DNA from: a bacterium
GTDB lineage: Bacteria > Armatimonadota > UBA5829
Reading direction: 5' to 3'
NCBI GenBank assembly: GCA_021373255.1
Contig: JAJFTD010000027.1
Span: 27,109 to 91,108, forward strand
Length of the DNA: 64,000 nucleotides
The translations under genes and the position numbers were made by a program. The notes below the pieces were generated by a model. That model was not told the origin of the DNA, did not search any database, and saw only the letters and a program-made list of their open reading frames with translations. Shown in pieces: positions 1,161 to 56,778 of this stretch; within the stretch, counting starts at the first letter, position 1, and the number at the start of each line of letters is the position of its first letter.

Positions 1161-4100
1161 TTAATTGCCCAGCTTACCCAGGCAGCATTTCTTGAACTTC
1201 TTGCCGCTTCCGCACGGGCACGGGTCGTTGCGTCCGATTTTGCCTGTCATATGTGCAGTGCCTGTGGCTCTGGCAGTCATCTGTGGTTGGCCGTCGCCCA
1301 TTCCCTGCGGACCCTCGGCGGAAAGCTCCACTGCGTTCTCGTAAGTCAAACGCCTGCGTCTTGGAGGCTCCTGGGTCTGGACTCGATACATTATATGGGC
1401 CATATCTTCCTGGATGCTATCCAGCATTCCCTGGAACAGGTCGTAGGCTTCTTTTTTGTATTCGACCAACGGGTCGCGCTGAGCGTAACCGCGCAGACCG
1501 ATTCCCTCACGCAGGAAATCCATCGCGTCCAGGTGATCGATCCACTTGCGGTTGATCAAGTCCAGAGTTACATGACGCTCGATCTCACGCATCAGCTCAA
1601 CGCCGATCTCCTGTTCCTTGGCTGCATAGCTGTGATCCACGACCTCAGCCAGCATATCCTCAAGCTCATCGCGTCTCTTGCCCTTGAGAGCGTCGGGCTT
1701 TACGTAAAGCTCCAGCGGAAGGATCTCATTTACGTTATGGAACAGCCCATTGGTATCCCACTCGCTCGGGGCAACTCCTTCGGAACAGTAGTTGTTAATA
1801 GCCGCTACCATCGCCTGGTGCAGGTATTCGACCACCGTAGCCCTCAGGTCTGCGCCTTCGAGTATCATCCTGCGCTGGCCATAAATGGTCTCGCGCTGGA
1901 CGTTCATAACGTCATCGTACTCCAACACGTGCTTTCTCATGTCGAAGTGGTGCAATTCGACTTTCTTCTGCGCACGCTCAATAGCTTTAGAGAGCACCTT
2001 ACCCAGGCTGCCCTCGTGCTCGATAGCCTCGTGCTCCTGCCAGCTCTGGAACATCCACGAGTTGGTTTTGTCTCCAAACAGCCGCATGAGTTCGTCTTCA
2101 AATGAGACGAAGAACTTGGACATACCCGGGTCGCCCTGGCGTCCAGAACGTCCTCTGAGCTGGTTATCGATTCGCCTGCTCTCGTGTCGCTCCGTACCTA
2201 TAATGTAAAGCCCACCCCTGAGGACGACATCAAGTGTCCTGGGGTTGGCAGCCGCATCGGCGTATTTGTCCGGGTTGTGCATCTTCCATGAGTCGAAGTC
2301 CCATGTGAGGTCGGCCATATCGAACTCAGGCCCCTCGGGCTCCTCCTCGCCATCTGGAAGCGGAGCGCCGCCCGGGATGATGTCAACACCACGACCGGCC
2401 ATGTTGGTCGCGATTGTAACAGCCCCACGGCGTCCGGCTTGAGATATGATCTCAGCTTCCATCTCGTGATACTTGGCGTTGAGAACGCTGTGGACGATGC
2501 CTTCCTTGAGCGCCTCATACAACTTTTGTTTACCGCTTGGCCTTATGCCGAGCAGCGTCGCAAGCTCGTCGAGGTTCTTCTCGTTAAGCATATTAAGCTC
2601 AACACCGAGCTTCTTAGCCAGCTTGCCAAAGTTGTTAATCCCCAATGTGCTGAACTTTGCATTCAGCAGGTCATAGGACTCCTGCTTCTCTTCTTTGGAA
2701 ATATCATCTGCCGCTTCCAGGCGGGAACGCAGTAGCACCGTGGCCGCCAGCAGTTGCAGCCGCTCGGAGAGCAGCAGTTCGCTTATACGCTCAGATACTT
2801 CAATAGACCTGGTTCCGACCAGCACCGGCTGTTCGCGAGTATAAGCCTTGAGCACTTCGAGCATTATGCCTCTGAACTTGGCCTCTTCGGTCTTGAAAAT
2901 TACATCAGAGACATCCTTGCGTATTACAAGCCTGTTAGTTGGAATCTCGGCGACGTCCAGCGCATAGATCTTACGGAACTCTTCCTCTTCAGTCTTAGCC
3001 GTACCAGTCATACCTGATAATTTGTTGTAAAGCCTGAAGTAGTTCTGGTAGGTGATGGTTGCCAGAGTCTGGTTTTCCTCTTCGACCCGGCATCCTTCCT
3101 TTGCTTCAACAGCCTGGTGAAGCCCGTCGCTCCATCTTCGGCCGAACATCAGACGCCCGGTGAACTCGTCAACGATGGTAACCTGACCGTCCTTCACCAC
3201 ATAGTCGATGTCCTTCTTAAATACCGCGTGGGCTTTAAGGGCGGCGTTGACATACTGGTTAGTTTCCAGGTTTTCAGGGTCGCTGAGGTTTCCGCATCCG
3301 GTGATCTCTTCAACCTTGTGCGTGCCCTCTTCAGTGAGCATCGCAGTCTTGGCTTTCTCGTCGACGGTAAAATCGCGGTCCTTCGACAGCCTGCGCACAA
3401 CCTTGTCCATCTTATAATACATATCACTAGAGCGGTTGCCAGGCCCGGATATGATAAGTGGAGTTCTCGCCTCGTCAACGAGAATGGAGTCCACCTCGTC
3501 GACTATCGCGTAGTTAAGCTCCCTCTGGACCAGGTCTTCGGCTCTGAACGCCATGTTGTCGCGCAGGTAGTCGAACCCAAACTCGTGGTTGGTTCCGTAA
3601 GTGATATCGCAAGCATATGCTTCTCTGCGGCTCACCGGCCTCAGTCTATCCCAACCGTTTGGATCGTCCGCCACGTAGTCCGGATCGAATATGAACGAAT
3701 TGCTGGATTCCCTGCTCTCGGCGCTTTGGCCGTGGATCGATCCGACCGTGAGGCCCAGCATGTGATAAACAGGCCCGTTCCACCGCGCGTCGCGCTTGGA
3801 TAGGTAGTCGTTCACAGTAACCAGGTGAGCGCCCTTACCTGATAATGCGTTCAAATACAGAGGCAGCGTTGCGACAAGGGTCTTACCCTCACCGGTTCTC
3901 ATCTCGGAGATTCGCCCCTGGTGCAGCACCATACCACCGATCATCTGCACGTCAAAGTGCCGGAGACCAAGTACACGCATAGCGGCCTCACGCACCACCG
4001 CGAACGCCTCTACCAGTAGGTCGTCCAGGATCGCACCGTCAGCAAGCCGTTTGCGGAACTCGTCCGTCTTACCTCTAAGCTGTTCATCGCTCAGGGCCTT

Positions 4101-5626: not shown

Positions 5627-5674
5627 AAGATTGTGCTTAGCTGCTATATCTCAACAAGAAAAGAGGTGATATTA

Positions 5675-6355
5675 TTGCTTAAGAAGCTGTTGACAGTTGC
5701 TGTAGTGTGTGGACTTCTGGTCTGTGCTGTTGGTGCGTGGTCCGCTAGCTACACATTCAAACCTGCTGATGCTGATCTTGAGGATTTACCTCACGGCTCG
5801 CTCTATATGTGGGGAGTCTCAGATTGGATTTTACCTAGCAATGAGCAGATCGTCAGTGCAAAGTTGACTATCCACAATATCTACGACAATATCCTCTTCG
5901 ATGATGACCATCTTTATATCCATCTGTTGGATACGGCTGTGGGCCGGAGTGGCATGCCTGATAAAGCAAATTGGCATTCTGCTATCACAAACGGGAAGTC
6001 ATCTAGTTACAAGCGGATAACTAAAGAATATTGCGATTCGAACTGGATTGGTGACAGCAACAGAAATGGAGACAACTTCGCTGGACAGGGTATAGAACTG
6101 GGAACTTGGAGCGATCCTGACGGATGGTTCTGTTCTGATACTATTTCCTTTGACGTACCTATGACCAGTCTTTCATGGCTTTCCGACGGTGACTTCGGCA
6201 TTGGAATTGATCCGGATTGCCATTACAATAACTGTGGAGTCGACTTTACTATAACAACCTCAGTCCAACCGGATGTTCCTGAACCGATGAGTTTTGTGCT
6301 TGCTTCGCTGGGACTCAGCGCCATAGTTGGAACTAAGAGACTTCGCAAAAAATAA
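5675..6355 (+). CDS. Secreted PEP-CTERM sorting-domain protein (predicted exosortase substrate)
   Basis: N-terminal signal peptide (LKKLLTVAVVCGLLVCAVGAWSA). The C-terminus has VPEP, a hydrophobic helix (MSFVLASLGLSAIVG), and a basic tail (TKRLRKK), which is the PEP-CTERM architecture. RBS GAGGTG sits 6 nt before the TTG at 5675. The alternative start is the ATG at 5633. Confidence 0.65.
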   Translation: MLKKLLTVAVVCGLLVCAVGAWSASYTFKPADADLEDLPHGSLYMWGVSDWILPSNEQIVSAKLTIHNIYDNILFDDDHLYIHLLDTAVGRSGMPDKANWHSAITNGKSSSYKRITKEYCDSNWIGDSNRNGDNFAGQGIELGTWSDPDGWFCSDTISFDVPMTSLSWLSDGDFGIGIDPDCHYNNCGVDFTITTSVQPDVPEPMSFVLASLGLSAIVGTKRLRKK

Positions 6356-6502: not shown

Positions 6503-7057
6503 ATGCATATTCTGACTCAAGTCAAAACACGAACCCTTAGCGGTCGCCGCGCTGTGGTTGCGTCACTTATCGGAGCGGCGTTTACTGCTGTTTGCGCGCA
6601 AGTTGCATTCTATCTGCCCGGCAATCCCGTGCCTGTTACGGCGCAGGTATTTGCGGTTATCTGCTGCGGAATGGTGTTGGGCAGTAAATATGGAGCGCTG
6701 TCACAGATCGAATACCTGGTTGCCGGTCTGATGGGTGCGCCTATTTTTACGGGGTTCAAAGCCGGTCCGATTGTCCTGGCTGGACCTACCGCTGGTTACC
6801 TGATCGGGTTTATCTGTGCGGCTTATGTCGTCGGACGACTTCTCGAATCATCGCCCAGACGCTCATTTGCGCCCGCTGTTATTGGTGGTTTGATGGGCGT
6901 TGGAGTGATCTACGCCTTTGGCGCGGGATGGCTCGCTGTGTGGGGTGGGTCTGCATTTCCCGGGTTTGCTGCATGGATATTTGGTGCTGCGCCGTTTATT
7001 GGAGTGGACGCAGTGAAAGTCGTGCTGGCCGCGATGCTCTGTGTTGGGCGCAAGTAG
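6503..7057 (+). CDS. bioY: BioY-family biotin transporter (ECF S-component)
   Basis: 184-aa polytopic membrane protein. The YLPGNPVPVTAQVFAVICCGMVLGSKYGALSQIEYLVAGLMGAPIFTG region is typical of BioY. Confidence 0.75.
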   Translation: MHILTQVKTRTLSGRRAVVASLIGAAFTAVCAQVAFYLPGNPVPVTAQVFAVICCGMVLGSKYGALSQIEYLVAGLMGAPIFTGFKAGPIVLAGPTAGYLIGFICAAYVVGRLLESSPRRSFAPAVIGGLMGVGVIYAFGAGWLAVWGGSAFPGFAAWIFGAAPFIGVDAVKVVLAAMLCVGRK

Positions 7058-52028: not shown

Positions 52029-52104
52029 TGGAGCCGACGGAGGGATTCGAACCCACGGCCTGAGCTTTACGAAAGCCCTGCTCTACCTCTGAGCTACGTC
52101 GGCC
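52029..52104 (-). tRNA. tRNA-Thr (anticodon CGT), with encoded CCA
   Basis: Manual fold: acceptor GCCGACG/CGTCGGC, D-arm GCTC...GAGC, anticodon loop TTCGTAA, T-arm GTGGG-TTCGAAT-CCCTC, discriminator T, then CCA. Confidence 0.8.
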
Positions 52105-52113
52105 TAAAATGGG

Positions 52114-52189
<76 letters not shown>

Positions 52190-52319
52190 ACGTCGTTCGA
52201 TTCATGTCGAAGTCGGAGGCTCAAAGCCCACATTATTCCTGATTGCATTGCGGCTACGTCATTATTACTTGCCGTATCCGCGTTTTGTGAATAATGTGGT
52301 TTAGGACCTCCGACCAATG

Positions 52320-52396
52320 TGGCGGGGATGACGAGACTCGAACTCGCGACCTCCTACGTGACAGGCAGGCGCTCTAACCAACTGAGCTACACCCCC
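52320..52396 (-). tRNA. tRNA-Asp (anticodon GTC), with encoded CCA
   Basis: Manual fold: acceptor GGGGGTG/CATCCCC, D-arm GCTC-AGTTGGTTA-GAGC, anticodon loop CTGTCAC, T-arm GCGAG-TTCGAGT-CTCGT, then GCCA. Confidence 0.85.
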
Positions 52397-52404
52397 ACAT
52401 TTAC

Positions 52405-52480
52405 TGGTGGGCGAAGAGGGGCTCGAACCCCCGACATCTTCCTTGTAAGGGAAGCGCTCTCCCAACTGAGCTATTCGCCC
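52405..52480 (-). tRNA. tRNA-Val (anticodon TAC), with encoded CCA
   Basis: Manual fold: acceptor GGGCGAA/TTCGCCC, D-arm GCTC-AGTTGGGA-GAGC, anticodon stem CTTCC/GGAAG with loop CTTACAA, T-arm GGGGG-TTCGAGC-CCCTC, then ACCA. Confidence 0.85.
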
Positions 52481-52526
52481 AGACTATCCAGGATCGCCCT
52501 TTGCTCCGCGCCCATGCGCGAAACTA

Positions 52527-52555
52527 AGTATACCAAAAACAGCTAGGGCTGTCAA
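52527..52555 (-). promoter_or_regulatory. Promoter TTGACA-17-TATACT driving the tRNA operon (minus strand)
   Basis: The minus strand reads TTGACAGCCCTAGCTGTTTTTGGTATACT, about 45 nt upstream of the tRNA-Val 5' end. Confidence 0.5.
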
Positions 52556-52844
52556 TTACTGACCGGATAAAAAAGCAGGCGCCACCTTGCGCACCCGCTC
52601 ATCCGCCCAATTTATACCCTACGGCGAATCCACGAAAAGTATATCATTTCAAACTTATGGCTGTCAACAGAAAAAGCCCTGCTACTACAAATTATCGGAA
52701 CTACATACGCCAGGGATACGTAATGTAATTGTAAATCGCTTGCGACTTCCTTTCTCCTTCCCGTAATTGCCTGCATGGTCAGGCAAATGAAACAAGGCCC
52801 ACCGGCTTCCCCTCAGCCGATGGGCCCTTTCATTTATACCTAAT

Positions 52845-53234
52845 CTATACCCATCGCTCGAAAATCTCTTCAAATTCCTCTTTGCTGGCTTCTCTTACCG
52901 GTGAAAACGAGATGATTGTCACAGTTTCCAGCGGGGTCACCACACGGTCGTATATGCGGGTCAGCAGGGTCATTACGTCCTCAGCACTCCGAAATTCCAA
53001 ATTTTCTTTCTCGACTTCCATCATGCTGAGGTTGCCAACGTTTTTCACTATGACATCGTCAATGACCGCCGTAAACAACTTCTGCCGAACCTGATACCTG
53101 CGCCCAACAGTGATCCACACAATCTGGCCACTCTTATACTTATCAGACTTGTCACCAAGCCTTATAGTCGCGCTCTTGCGCCCCCGCATCAGGGCGTCCG
53201 CGTATAATTCAGGGTAAAAATTCAATGCAAACAT
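52845..53234 (-). CDS. ASCH-domain (PUA-like fold) protein
   Basis: 129 aa. The N-terminus (ELYADALMRGRKSATIRLGDKSDKYKSGQIVWITVG) fits the ASCH beta-barrel pattern. Judged by eye. Confidence 0.5.
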   Translation of the reverse strand: MFALNFYPELYADALMRGRKSATIRLGDKSDKYKSGQIVWITVGRRYQVRQKLFTAVIDDVIVKNVGNLSMMEVEKENLEFRSAEDVMTLLTRIYDRVVTPLETVTIISFSPVREASKEEFEEIFERWV

Positions 53235-53295
53235 TTCCGTACTCCAATACCATACAAAGTAGCATTATAAAACGCGAGGGCTATAGTGTCAATAT

Positions 53296-53648
53296 TGCGC
53301 GTTGCCTCACGGGAGATGTCATCGAAATCGATTCGTTGCCTCACATAAGAATGTTACCGAAACGTCGCTTGTGTGTTGTCGCGATAGAGGAGATAACACC
53401 TTGCTTTCCCTTTTCCATCCTTGGTATCGACTCAGATAATGGTGGTGAGTTCATCAATGCTCATCTGATGCGCTACTGCACGCGTAACACCATCACATTC
53501 ACGCGCGGACGACCTCCAACTCAACCCGGCAGCGCTACTGCGTGACATTAACGCACTCGTAGGAGAGCTATATCAAGCACTCACTGAGTGACATCTCTCG
53601 TGAGGCAACGATAAGCATTACGGTAACATTTTCTCGTGAGGCAATACG
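53296..53648. mobile_element. Degenerate miniature IS (about 350 bp) with paired subterminal inverted repeats enclosing a transposase fragment
   Basis: Left end: CGTTGCCTCACGGGAGATGTCA at 53301-53322 and CGTTGCCTCACATAAGAATGTTACCG at 53335-53360. Right end carries inverted copies: TGACATCTCTCGTGAGGCAACG at 53588-53610 (21 of 22 match) and CGGTAACATTTTCTCGTGAGGCAATACG at 53621-53648. It lies directly beside the tRNA cluster. Confidence 0.55.
53395..53545 (+). pseudogene. Transposase/integrase catalytic-core remnant (DDE rve-type, IS481/IS3-like), lacking N- and C-terminal parts
   Basis: GIDSDNGGEFINAHLMRYCTRNTITFTRGRPPTQ corresponds to the DNGxEF...LTRPYHPQTNG block around the third catalytic residue of DDE integrases. 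The surrounding ORF has no other integrase domains. Confidence 0.5.
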
Positions 53649-53673
53649 GGAATCCGCAGAGTGGGATTGGGGA

Positions 53674-54159
53674 TTAGGGGATAGGGGGTGGCGAAGGTAA
53701 GTTAAGAGTAAGGCGCTGGTTTATTGCCTGGACCCAGGCATCTCGTTTTTTAGAGAGGAAGCAGACCCTCTTTCCGCCCTTCAAATCGAGGAAAAAGTGA
53801 GGAATGGCGTTCATATATGAGATGAATGGTCGGTTGTCAGTTGAAACAGATATAATCATATCTATAGGAAACACGACTGTTTTTTCATTGATAACGTTCT
53901 TGAAGATTATCTGCTGGCCAATAAACATAGCAACACCGCAGCCGTTGTGCCAGTTCCAAAAACCTCCCTCATTATACAATACTTTGTCAGGACCTAATAT
54001 AATGTTTTCGTGGTTGAGAGCAGCCGAAGTGCGCATGTTATCAGCAAACCGTGATAAGTTTAGCCATACTAGAATTATCCAACAACCGCCGATTAGTATG
54101 CCACTTAGCAGAGAGACTATAATTATATTTCTTAATATATCTGAAGACATATTAGCCAT
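53674..54159 (-). CDS. Hypothetical membrane-anchored protein in an AT-rich islet
   Basis: N-terminal TM helix (IIIVSLLSGILIGGCWIILVWL) followed by a roughly 120-aa domain with no recognisable motifs. Local GC is clearly below the window average (53800-54240). Confidence 0.35.
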   Translation of the reverse strand: MANMSSDILRNIIIVSLLSGILIGGCWIILVWLNLSRFADNMRTSAALNHENIILGPDKVLYNEGGFWNWHNGCGVAMFIGQQIIFKNVINEKTVVFPIDMIISVSTDNRPFISYMNAIPHFFLDLKGGKRVCFLSKKRDAWVQAINQRLTLNLPSPPPIP

Positions 54160-54236
54160 TCTCCATAAATCTAGGATATCTCAATAACACCTTGGATCTA
54201 TTTATAATGATATCTGATGTCAACCTTAGGATGGAT

Positions 54237-55076
54237 CTAGAATATTGGCTCCAATCCCACCGCGGCCTGCTTTAGCCGCTCTATCTCATCCTGCTCTATG
54301 GGTTTGAACTTCTCAGCTACATCCAATGCCATCTCAAACAATTCCACATGCCCGGGAGGCATTGCCACATTGATGTCCTGGGACAGCGTAAACCTCAGCG
54401 CCAGCGCGGCCAACTCAGGGTCGTCGTTGGGCATATACCAGCACTTGTTCCACTTGTGCTCTTCGTGTTCCGGCCACGGTTGCAGCGCCATCGATTTCAT
54501 CGCTGCCCTGCCCATACCCTTCCGGGCTGCCTCCTCAAGCACCTGAAGACCAACACCTTTGTTATACCAATAGGAAAAGTTTATCGGGAATAGAATGCTG
54601 TCGAAGTCGAACCTGTTCATCGCGTCCAACGCGACTTCAGGAGTATGGGTCGTGATACCGATGTTTCTGATCAAGCCTTCTTCTCTGGCTTTGATAAAGG
54701 TCTTCATTGCACCGTCTGCGCCGAAGATCACATCCAGTGTTGCGCAATCAGGCACACCGTGGAATTGGAAAATATCAAAGTGGTCAGTACGCAAACGCTT
54801 GAGAGACCTGTGGAGCGACTCCTCCGCTGCCTCGCTGGTGCGCTCAGCCGTCTTGCATGCCAAGACCACGCCATCACGTAGTCCATCAAGCGCGGGCCCT
54901 AAGCGTTCCTCAGCGTCACCGTAACCCGGTGCCACGTCAAAATAATTGACTCCACGATCTATCGCCATTGCCACAGCGCGATTGGCGTCTTCTTGCGTCG
55001 CGCTCATAACCACGATTCCACCGAAACCAATAATCGAGACATCAAGCCCCGTTTTGCCAAATCTGCGATATTCCAT
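54237..55076 (-). CDS. Aldo/keto reductase family oxidoreductase
   Basis: MEYRRFGKTGLDVSIIGFGG...NYFDVAPGYGDAEE...HGVPD... is canonical for AKRs. The track ORF extends upstream to 55550, but MEYRRFG is the family-typical start. Confidence 0.85.
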   Translation of the reverse strand: MEYRRFGKTGLDVSIIGFGGIVVMSATQEDANRAVAMAIDRGVNYFDVAPGYGDAEERLGPALDGLRDGVVLACKTAERTSEAAEESLHRSLKRLRTDHFDIFQFHGVPDCATLDVIFGADGAMKTFIKAREEGLIRNIGITTHTPEVALDAMNRFDFDSILFPINFSYWYNKGVGLQVLEEAARKGMGRAAMKSMALQPWPEHEEHKWNKCWYMPNDDPELAALALRFTLSQDINVAMPPGHVELFEMALDVAEKFKPIEQDEIERLKQAAVGLEPIF

Positions 55077-55274
55077 AACAAGATAATATAACTGACAGCC
55101 GGGCTTTTCAAGTGTTACACAACGTGAACAAGACCAACTAACGCACAACGCACAACGCGCCAACGCATAACCGTCCCGTTGCCATTGCCAAATTTGCAAT
55201 TCCTTTCTAAAATATACTGGCAGCGTTTGTATGTGAATGCAGGGCTCGCTGCCTACCGAGCTAGGAGGAATCGA

Positions 55275-56321
55275 ATGAAACTGGATGGCACCTGGACAGC
55301 TATTGTCACGCCTATGAATGCTGATTTCAGCGTAAACTGGGAGGGGCTGGAGAAATGCGTTGAGTTCCAGATATCTCAGGGTATCACGGGCGTGGTGCCC
55401 GTCGGAACCACTGGTGAGTCTCCCACGTTGACTTGGGAAGAGCACACTCAAGTGGTAGATCGCGTATTGGCCCAGTGCAAAGGCAAGTGCGGCGTGTTGG
55501 CAGGCGCGGGAAGTAACTCTACCTCCGAAGCTATTGTGAGTGCCGGTCACGCGGTGTCATCAGGAGCCGAGGCTGTGCTGGTTGTGGACTGCTATTATAA
55601 TGGTCCTTCCTCTCGCGAACTGCGTGATGAATATTATGCGGTGCTTGCACGAGAGTTTCCTAATACCTCAATTGTACCTTACATAATCCCCGGCAGGTCA
55701 GGCACTGCGCTTGCTTGCGAGGACCTTGCCCTGCTTGCAGCTCAGTATCCGAATATTGCTACTGTCAAGGAAGCAACGGGTGACCTAGAGCGAATGGCGA
55801 AGACACGCTCACTCATCGGTGATGGCTTCTCAATAATGAGTGGAGATGACGACCTCACTTTCAAGATGATGTCTGACACTAGAATCCGGGCTAATGGCGT
55901 AATATCAGTTGTATCAAACGTTGCGCCGGCGGCTTTGCAGAAGATGGTGAAGTTGGCTTCAAGTGGCGACCTCGAGGGCGCCGGAAAGATGAGCGAAGCC
56001 CTTGCCCCGCTTCTGGGTATAGTCACTGTAAAGGTGAACAACGAGCGTGTGCTGCATTCCGGCGATAAAGTTACTGTTTCGGATAAATACAGGAACCCTG
56101 TCGCAATCAAGACACTTATGTCAGGGCTTGGATTACCGTCGGGCCCGGGACGCAGGCCATTGGGCAAAATGTCGAGTGCCGGTGTTAAGGTCGTAAGGGA
56201 TGCTGTGAAGCAGGTCTGGGATAATAACCCCGAGGTCCTGCAGCCGGCGAGCGACTTTTTTGGCATAAACATAGCCGCAAGATTAGCCGACGACTCCGTG
56301 TGGGAAGCCTTGGCGCTGTAG
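55275..56321 (+). CDS. DapA-family class I aldolase (dihydrodipicolinate synthase / N-acetylneuraminate lyase family) with a C-terminal extension of about 55 aa
   Basis: GVVPVGTTGESPTLTWEEH, and the Schiff-base lysine region ATVKEATGD. RBS AGGAGG sits 7 nt before the ATG. It is about 348 aa, against roughly 290 aa for canonical DapA. Confidence 0.7.
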   Translation: MKLDGTWTAIVTPMNADFSVNWEGLEKCVEFQISQGITGVVPVGTTGESPTLTWEEHTQVVDRVLAQCKGKCGVLAGAGSNSTSEAIVSAGHAVSSGAEAVLVVDCYYNGPSSRELRDEYYAVLAREFPNTSIVPYIIPGRSGTALACEDLALLAAQYPNIATVKEATGDLERMAKTRSLIGDGFSIMSGDDDLTFKMMSDTRIRANGVISVVSNVAPAALQKMVKLASSGDLEGAGKMSEALAPLLGIVTVKVNNERVLHSGDKVTVSDKYRNPVAIKTLMSGLGLPSGPGRRPLGKMSSAGVKVVRDAVKQVWDNNPEVLQPASDFFGINIAARLADDSVWEALAL

Positions 56322-56346
56322 GGTTCCTTTCTGAGGAGGGGCCTAT

Positions 56347-56778
56347 ATGTTAATCAGAGCCTTGATCTTTATTATAGGTTTGCTCATTACTGCATTAGGC
56401 GTAACCCAGATTTTCTTTACGTCGATGTGGATGCGCTACTTGCCGTCGTTGGTTTCTGTTCCGATGATTCGGAACTGGGGTATCGCTGCCCTGGTTGCTG
56501 GGGCACTACTGCTGATAGGCGCAATCGCGAATCTGGTCAGGCTACGGTGGTTTGTATTGTTCTTGGGAGCGCTGACGCTGGCCGGTGGCATTTTAATGGT
56601 AGTAAGGCCTGGCCTCTCGCATCATTTCATAGAGCAGTTCTTGCTGGACCGTTCACCGTCAGTGCAGCGTACGATATTGCGCGGCAGTGGAGTGCTGCGG
56701 GTTGTCATAGGAATTGCACTTATGTATGCCGCGGCAGCATTACCGCCGAGGCGCAACGGCGGGCGAATCTGGTCGTAA
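56347..56778 (+). CDS. Hypothetical small 4-TM membrane protein
   Basis: Hydrophobic segments only. No family recognised. Confidence 0.35.
   Translation: MLIRALIFIIGLLITALGVTQIFFTSMWMRYLPSLVSVPMIRNWGIAALVAGALLLIGAIANLVRLRWFVLFLGALTLAGGILMVVRPGLSHHFIEQFLLDRSPSVQRTILRGSGVLRVVIGIALMYAAAALPPRRNGGRIWS

Follow-up and report, generated by a model that had tools for sequence, protein, structure and literature searches.

A decayed insertion sequence with paired end sites beside a sigma70-type promoter in an Armatimonadota genome

Among bacterial insertion sequences (IS), those of the IS1202 family (ISAjo2 type) are described by Harmer, Pong and Hall (2023, PMC10132070) as elements of 1.3-1.75 kb with an rve/TnsB-like transposase of 394-507 aa, whose ends each combine a terminal repeat with a second, internal copy of the binding site. 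They insert 5 bp away from a site bound by protein, always in the same orientation, and produce a 5-bp target duplication. Transposases with an rve core and DD35E spacing are also found in the IS481 family, and the label 'ISNCY' is given by RefSeq/PGAP to a further group of IS considered below. In yeast, the integrases of Ty3 and Ty1 direct insertion upstream of the tRNA genes transcribed by RNA polymerase III (Pol III). The element described here bears resemblances to all of these. It lies in a 64,000-nucleotide stretch of an Armatimonadota genome (lineage UBA5829; GCA_021373255.1, contig JAJFTD010000027.1, positions 27,109 to 91,108), hereafter the window, between a gene for an ASCH-domain protein and an open reading frame (ORF) for a 161-aa membrane protein. 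The locus is very probably best understood as a dead, internally deleted IS copy, situated at a promoter-adjacent position of the kind in which its subfamily is repeatedly found, next to an unrelated and plausibly foreign gene whose product is predicted to have a PH-like fold.

The IS remnant spans 351 bp (53298-53648, plus strand, the orientation being the reading direction of the transposase) and is defined by the 9-mer core TTGCCTCAC, which occurs exactly four times in the window, always within 53302-53644 (at 53302 and 53336 on the plus strand and at 53600 and 53636 on the minus strand), a number reached in none of 100 shuffles. All four sites are versions of a single site of ~24 bp and follow the order A B ... 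A' B', forming two direct copies at each end and no nested hairpin, with the arms 53300-53321 and 53589-53610 being 95% complementary over 22 nt and the arms 53336-53362 and 53618-53644 81% complementary over 27 nt. The left outer site, CGCG-TTGCCTCAC-GGGAGATGTCATC (53298-53323), is separated by 34 nt core-to-core from the left inner site, TTCG-TTGCCTCAC-ATAAGAATGTTACCGAAA (53332-53362), and the inverted right inner (53589-53612) and right outer (53618-53648) sites, both on the minus strand, are 36 nt apart core-to-core. The termini, 53298 and 53648, were set so as to include 4 nt beyond each outer core. Near-identical IS copies elsewhere begin to diverge 4-5 nt away from the outer core, and termini so defined are directly flanked by a 5-bp target duplication at the loci L001 (GGGCA) and L049 (CCGGC). 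We infer that the four end sites are transposase-binding sites.

Two pieces of transposase coding sequence remain between the end sites. The first, of 50 codons (53366-53515, plus strand), corresponds approximately to residues 236-289 of the 544-aa transposase of locus L121, is 74% identical to the transposase P0001 over 50 aa (E 1e-25) and recovered 33 database matches (E down to 1e-15), which are rve transposase fragments of one type sharing the motif ...LGIDSDNGGEFINAHL..ITFTRGRPYKKND..VEQKN. The second (53520-53591, plus strand) is in a different frame and represents the C-terminal tail with its stop codon: 53520-53573 comprises the last 18 codons matching P0001 (LNPAALLRDINALVGELY versus LDPAQLLRYIQSLVSELY, E 5e-5), after which come five codons and a TGA stop located inside the right inner end site. 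Two internal deletions, of ~235 N-terminal and ~100 central codons, account for the missing sequence and leave both ends complete. With the catalytic triad of L121 (D203, D264 and E300) as a reference, the window copy retains the second Asp (in DSDNG) and lacks an intact triad, the N-terminal region as well as the regions equivalent to D203 and E300 being deleted. As the deletions took the first Asp and the Glu, this copy cannot move itself, and it could be mobilised at most in trans; the public annotation calls no gene within the element. An earlier note on this DNA had recognized a decayed IS of ~350 bp with two related sites at each end in inverted arrangement, as is borne out by the four cores and their paired arms. 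The ~45 codons of a DDE core that it took for the only coding remnant do belong to an rve domain, here delimited at 50 codons, and are accompanied by the C-terminal piece which that note had missed.

A genome collection with one genome per species was scanned for pairs of cores 20-32 nt apart. At least 120 loci were recovered, distributed over many phyla and in many cases situated at the end of a contig, as a repeated element would be. At ~50 of them the double site is accompanied by a gene for the same transposase. The double site is found either upstream of the transposase gene and in the same orientation (spacing 33-35) or downstream of it and inverted (spacing 36-37); the 34 and 36 nt of the window copy fall within these left and right ranges of the full-length relatives, and it retains exactly this left/right asymmetry. 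Full copies measure 1.3-1.75 kb and encode an rve (DDE) transposase of 400-544 aa. They are exemplified by L121 (~1.65 kb), whose 544-aa transposase contains a Pfam rve domain (E 1.5e-8), and by L005, a contig of 1656 bp that is essentially one IS. The transposase core weakly resembles those of retroviral integrases (prototype foamy virus, PFV, integrase, E 3e-4). Read inward, the termini are CGCG, CGAA, CGAG, CCTG or CGTA. Target duplications are full in L001 and L049, match at four of five positions in L121 and are absent from L003, L011 and L068.

The ends of certain members show additional features. In L001, which is most closely related to the window element, the site is present four times at the right end and twice at the left (6565-6750), with the core variant TTGCATCA. 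In members from Dehalococcoidia the double site is flanked on its outer side by either one more site, the third (TTGCCTCAA), or an additional inverted repeat (CGTCAAC...TTTGCCGG), as seen at the left ends of L013, L094, L101 and L116 and at both ends of L121 and L031; end architecture therefore varies within the IS family. L105 contains, within 2219-3600, a pair of right-type double sites that share one orientation and are separated by 1327 bp, which points to IS copies in tandem or next to each other. The long transposases (500+ aa) also possess a C-terminal extension that shares a short segment with the IS21-family protein IstA (L121 residues ~450-514, NCBIfam IS21, E 2.9e-5; plasmid matches H46-H54). 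In the plasmid search described below 61 Escherichia plasmid records were matched, and E. coli sequences among the matches listed cover only L121 residues 451-510.

With respect to classification, relatives on plasmids that are 47-50% identical to L121 carry the labels 'ISNCY family transposase' or 'DDE-type integrase/transposase/recombinase'. The transposases of the 'ISNCY'-labelled IS (e.g. WP_095678114.1 from the Sinorhizobium plasmid NZ_CP023065.1) are homologous to those studied here, the sizes agree (1.3-1.75 kb), and the alphaproteobacterial members found in the scan have the same TTGCCTCAC double end sites. The window copy differs from these IS in that deletions have reduced it to 351 bp and left it with no functional transposase. 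The group may presumably be the one that ISfinder designates ISDol1. The best NCBIfam match for both L121 and the window fragment is IS481, with which the rve core and the DD35E spacing are shared; however, against the IS481 model (NF033577) L121 scores 39.6 bits and the window fragment 15.6, far below the curated cut-off of 224, the transposases of the present family are longer, and each end of the elements bears two sites.

The parallels with IS1202 concern the mode of action. In both groups the binding site is repeated internally at either end, a feature that PMC10132070 gives for IS1202, and the 2+2 sites, the insertion 5 bp from a -35 element and the 5-bp duplications at L001 and L049 are all reminiscent of that family. 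In contrast, the termini given there for IS1202 are 5'-TGT/ACA-3', while those of the present elements are C-G... or CC-, and the Gln given there at position E+7 of IS1202 transposases is replaced by Val, as counted from the motif (VEQKNWDVV in P0001, IEQKNGSVV in L121). The same source sets IS1202 transposases at 25-56% identity to TnpAjo2. A tblastn search with the L121 transposase against 72,556 plasmids (E 1e-5) yielded no Acinetobacter among the ten commonest genera or among the matches listed, and its enterobacterial matches covered only the short IstA-like C-terminal segment, with no ISKpn21-type or other IS1202-family match. Because the TGT/ACA ends and the Gln at E+7 are absent and no similarity to Acinetobacter or enterobacterial IS1202 members emerged from the plasmid search, the relation appears, at the level of sequence, to be one of working like IS1202 and not one of membership. 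The targets also differ, being a Xer site in IS1202 and, as it seems, a promoter here. A dif/Xer-like site in the flank was considered and rejected: by inspection, only two promoter hexamers are conserved, and palindromic 11-nt arms are lacking.

The promoter in question is a sigma70-type sequence, TTGACA-N17-TATAAT (53264-53292, minus strand), which agrees with the consensus at 12 of 12 positions and reads into the ASCH gene; downstream of it are a GGAG ribosome-binding site and then the ASCH start codon. Its -35 hexamer stands 5 bp from the left terminus of the IS, and the transposase gene points away from it. The same geometry recurs in the relatives. A TTG is found exactly 9 nt outward of the outer core at 15 of the 44 left-type ends with enough flanking sequence to be counted and at none of 45 right-type ends, and in 13 of these 15 flanks a -10-like hexamer follows 16-18 nt further on, as counted by hand. 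The promoter match is 12/12 in L037 and 11/12 in L003 and L046. When the left flanks were shuffled 300 times, promoter-like flanks (at least 9/12) numbered 0.7 on average and 3 at most. Besides the window (53264-53298), the geometry is present at L003, L030, L037, L046, L058, L067, L068, L071, L080, L093, L117, L011, L035, L049 and L001 (5292-5332), in unrelated genomes and upstream of different genes. Three of these promoters drive tRNA genes, located 51 nt (tRNA-Leu), 54 nt (tRNA-Met) and 64 nt (tRNA-Val) from the outer core and starting 13-26 nt past the -10; others drive an rpsU-like ORF, nusA (L001) and ASCH (window). A scan of viral contigs, used as a negative control, returned 10 chance double cores without IS features, none with a TTG at this offset.

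The pattern was found and tested on the same loci, with the exception of L001 and L222. L001 was reached by protein similarity and has a variant core, and hence was not picked by the DNA pattern; it shows TTGCAA-N17-TATACT at the same offset upstream of nusA. Three more IS copies were sampled via protein matches, of which one, L222, has a readable left end, without a promoter, and the other two have no recognisable left sites. The absence of a promoter at L222 implies that promoter adjacency is a property of a subfamily or a preference and not a rule. The recurrent geometry suggests promoter-targeted insertion. Whether an IS subfamily distributed from Actinomycetota to Armatimonadota inserts in one orientation exactly 5 bp upstream of a sigma70-type -35 element is, in our judgement, an evenly balanced question.

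The main alternative to such oriented insertion is that the geometry results from survival and not from targeting, with the IS merely preferring a short motif (GTCAA at 5 bp) and harmless intergenic insertions persisting where this motif usually happens to be a -35 element. Purifying selection against intragenic insertions is to be expected in any case, and the restriction of the pattern to 15 of 44 left-type ends, together with its absence from the independently sampled L222, accords with this explanation. However, a mere motif preference does not readily account for the -10-like hexamers at 16-18 nt in 13 of the 15 motif-bearing flanks, for which a hand estimate of the chance expectation is ~5% per flank, nor for the invariant orientation, with no instance among the 45 right ends. 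We accordingly regard survival as rather unlikely.

A promoter borne by the IS itself, either outward-facing or formed as a hybrid with a -35 contributed by the IS end instead of the target DNA, would place the -35 at a fixed 9-nt offset from the outer core as observed at 15 loci, and outward-facing or hybrid promoters are well known in other IS. This is improbable in view of the flanks. Among copies with an identity of 0.86-0.96 inside the IS, identity drops to 0.28-0.38 beyond the 4-nt terminus, the five nucleotides next to the terminus, the promoter spacer and the sequence beyond differing completely between them, and at L001 and L049 the five bases beside the -35 constitute one copy of the target duplication. 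Since near-identical copies differ outside and the duplication abuts the -35, the promoter belongs to the flank and not to the IS, and at the three tRNA loci it is a chromosomal gene that begins shortly after the -10. A possible IS end at GTCAA, 14 nt outside the core, was likewise rejected, as the near-identical copies reveal it to be the -35 box of the flank. The ASCH gene was also considered as a passenger of the IS, and discarded, as no ASCH homologue occurs beside any other copy.

On the other side of the remnant lies the low-GC membrane-protein ORF of 161 aa (53674-54159, minus strand; 158 aa from the ATG at 54150), which is annotated in the public record GCA_039683435.1 as ABFD54_17980 (158 aa, P0034) and is known only from the source contig. 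Its GC content of 0.412, versus a mean of 0.519 for the genes of the window (z -3.8), and its codon-usage score (z -3.2) are the lowest of 44 ORFs, and its GC content at third codon positions (GC3) is also reduced (z -2.5). An exhaustive phmmer search of 1.84 billion representatives recovered four homologues of similar length, the best being P0035 (37% identity, E 1.6e-23), and a profile search extended these to 18 clusters (139-158 aa), all of them devoid of Pfam domains. It is thus a real gene, and its product belongs to a rare, uncharacterised bacterial family. The low GC and the atypical codon use make a foreign origin plausible. An AlphaFold2 (AF2) model from the single sequence had a confidence (pLDDT) of 50.7 and was replaced by one derived from a 5-sequence alignment, in which an N-terminal transmembrane helix, the protein's single pass through the membrane, is predicted to precede a PH-like seven-stranded beta-sandwich with a C-terminal capping helix. 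The predicted sandwich and C-terminal helix are shared with bacterial PH-like domains (bPH_2, PF03703; bPH_11, PF25362; GRAM, PF02893), and many bPH proteins likewise have a membrane helix in front of the domain. Of 19 family members, one matches bPH_2 (E 0.0012) and one bPH_11 (E 0.0062), both short of the Pfam gathering thresholds, and the window protein itself matches neither. On the basis of the model we infer that the protein might function as a membrane-tethered ligand- or partner-binding module and not as a toxin or immunity gene. The ORF and its compositional deviation, which a check of GC and codon usage confirmed, had been pointed out in the earlier note, whose statement that the protein has no recognisable domain holds for its sequence and not for its predicted structure.

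The same note had drawn attention to a G-tract (53661-53690, plus strand), which is indeed present and fits a G-quadruplex motif, one of two such motifs on the plus strand and of four on both strands of the 64 kb. Read on the minus strand, it covers the 3' end of the 161-aa ORF, with the final five codons (PPPIP) and the stop, and a further 13 nt of flank. Sequence rich in G-runs (at least four runs of three or more G in 60 nt) was also seen in 4 of 43 right flanks (window 53649-53690, L022, L054 and L104) and in 1 of 46 left flanks; its occurrence beside right ends of the IS may be due to chance.

In the public record GCA_039683435.1, a metagenome-assembled Armatimonadota genome, the window belongs to the 139-kb contig JBDKRM010000068.1. 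The gene order on the minus strand is AKR, the 161-aa ORF, ASCH, tRNA-Val/Asp/Phe/Thr and a UDP-glucose pyrophosphorylase-type gene; the repeat-bounded element separates the 161-aa ORF from ASCH and has its transposase remnant on the plus strand. The ASCH-domain gene (52845-53234, minus strand, 129 aa) is of normal composition (GC3 z +0.6, codon usage z 0.0) and is followed by a strong terminator-like hairpin on its 3' side (52794-52828). The tRNA operon Val-Asp-Phe-Thr (52029-52480, minus strand) has promoter-like sites of its own at 52667-52638 and 52555-52527 (minus strand), each matching at 11 of 12 positions and with an extended -10 TG, in an arrangement that looks like tandem promoters; a terminator-like hairpin (52600-52573) sits between these two sites upstream of tRNA-Val. 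In an Rfam scan of 52400-54400 tRNAs alone were found, with no RNA family in the element or the spacers. The AKR gene (54237-55076, minus strand) has an annotated product of 279 aa; the mechanically called ORF of 437 aa (54237-55550, minus strand) is an over-extended version of it, and its upstream extension overlaps the start of a divergent DHDPS-type ORF (from 55179). The best AKR relatives, from metagenomes, are 48-53% identical and of high GC and share no gene context. A second ORF of atypical composition in the window is located at 5633-6355 (plus strand; 240 aa, GC 0.451, z -2.4; GC3 z -2.4).

The earlier note had read the IS scar and the 161-aa gene as an accessory islet acquired at the tRNA locus, with the membrane protein as a plausible orphan immunity or abortive-infection gene; in its widest form this reading takes in ASCH as well. 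The low GC and atypical codons of the 161-aa gene and the IS remnant adjoining it would fit such an islet, and the missing target duplication might stem from a rearrangement, mediated by the IS, in which foreign DNA became attached to its right end. The proposal is nevertheless improbable, as its further elements fall away. ASCH, with its ordinary composition, its own consensus promoter and its terminator, appears to belong to no acquired unit. In the minus-strand operon it is the 5' end of tRNA-Val that faces the segment, which hence does not abut a tRNA 3' end as an island would. No integrase ORF occurs between 52480 and 54240, and no tRNA-derived match in 52600-56500 exceeds 11 nt, a length expected by chance. 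With the operon having its own promoters, with ASCH and a terminator in between, and with the 5' location and the lack of an integrase or tRNA-derived direct repeat, the tRNA locus adds nothing in favor of acquisition, and the geometry of the ASCH promoter explains better than the operon why the IS lies where it does. A role in defence also finds no echo in the data: PADLOC matched 0 families, and the homologues of the 161-aa protein, in the four contexts compared, adjoin isocitrate dehydrogenase, a TetR regulator, a DUF2071 gene or SfsA, in unrelated surroundings of housekeeping type with no conserved partner, IS or defence gene nearby. The 161-aa gene is unrelated to the adjoining IS.

That the 351-bp element is an active, multi-copy non-autonomous element, akin to a miniature inverted-repeat transposable element (MITE) and mobilised in trans by an intact copy elsewhere in the genome, would agree with its complete ends and with the exactness of its four 9-mer cores despite two deletions, and is likewise improbable given the recognisable transposase remnants, the single copy in the window, the lack of a target duplication and the lack of any other short derivative with the same deletion junctions among the loci fetched.

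A dead, internally deleted IS beside an unrelated PH-like gene is, then, the reading retained, and certain points weigh against it. There is no target-site duplication at the window copy, whose 5-bp flanks are TATTG (left) and GGAAT (right), so that the DNA on either side may have undergone rearrangement; its copy number, one, refers to the 64-kb window; and the name of its family is provisionally taken from RefSeq labels and not from ISfinder. Likewise, the PH-like assignment comes from a medium-confidence model built on 5 sequences, and the foreign origin of the neighboring gene is argued from composition over 161 codons.

Thus, the finding is that of an ordinary decayed IS beside a rare hypothetical gene and needs no special explanation. 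The paired TTGCCTCAC sites with their 34/36-nt spacing nevertheless provide a compact signature by which the ends and remnants of this IS family, which is poorly classified, can be annotated across many phyla. The one result beyond the ordinary is the oriented, promoter-adjacent position. If promoter targeting is real, the rve transposase would read either the promoter itself or a promoter-bound protein such as sigma region 4 or RNA polymerase, and promoters would form a new class of target beside those of the Xer-site and res-site 'hunters'. Such an IS would be a bacterial counterpart of the Ty3-type targeting upstream of Pol III genes, in that an rve-type enzyme inserts the element a short, constant distance ahead of a transcription start, frequently one belonging to a tRNA gene; the Ty elements are, however, eukaryotic, move via an RNA intermediate and are tethered by TFIIIB or Pol III, and the comparison is one of analogy only. 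As far as the literature was searched here, a target-selection rule of this kind is undescribed for bacterial IS; the search returned nothing relevant on the ends of this family or on promoter targeting, which is no proof of novelty, as it did not cover the IS catalogues ISfinder and TnPedia. If the rule holds, it would bear on how IS spare their hosts and on the plasticity of genomes in the vicinity of promoters.

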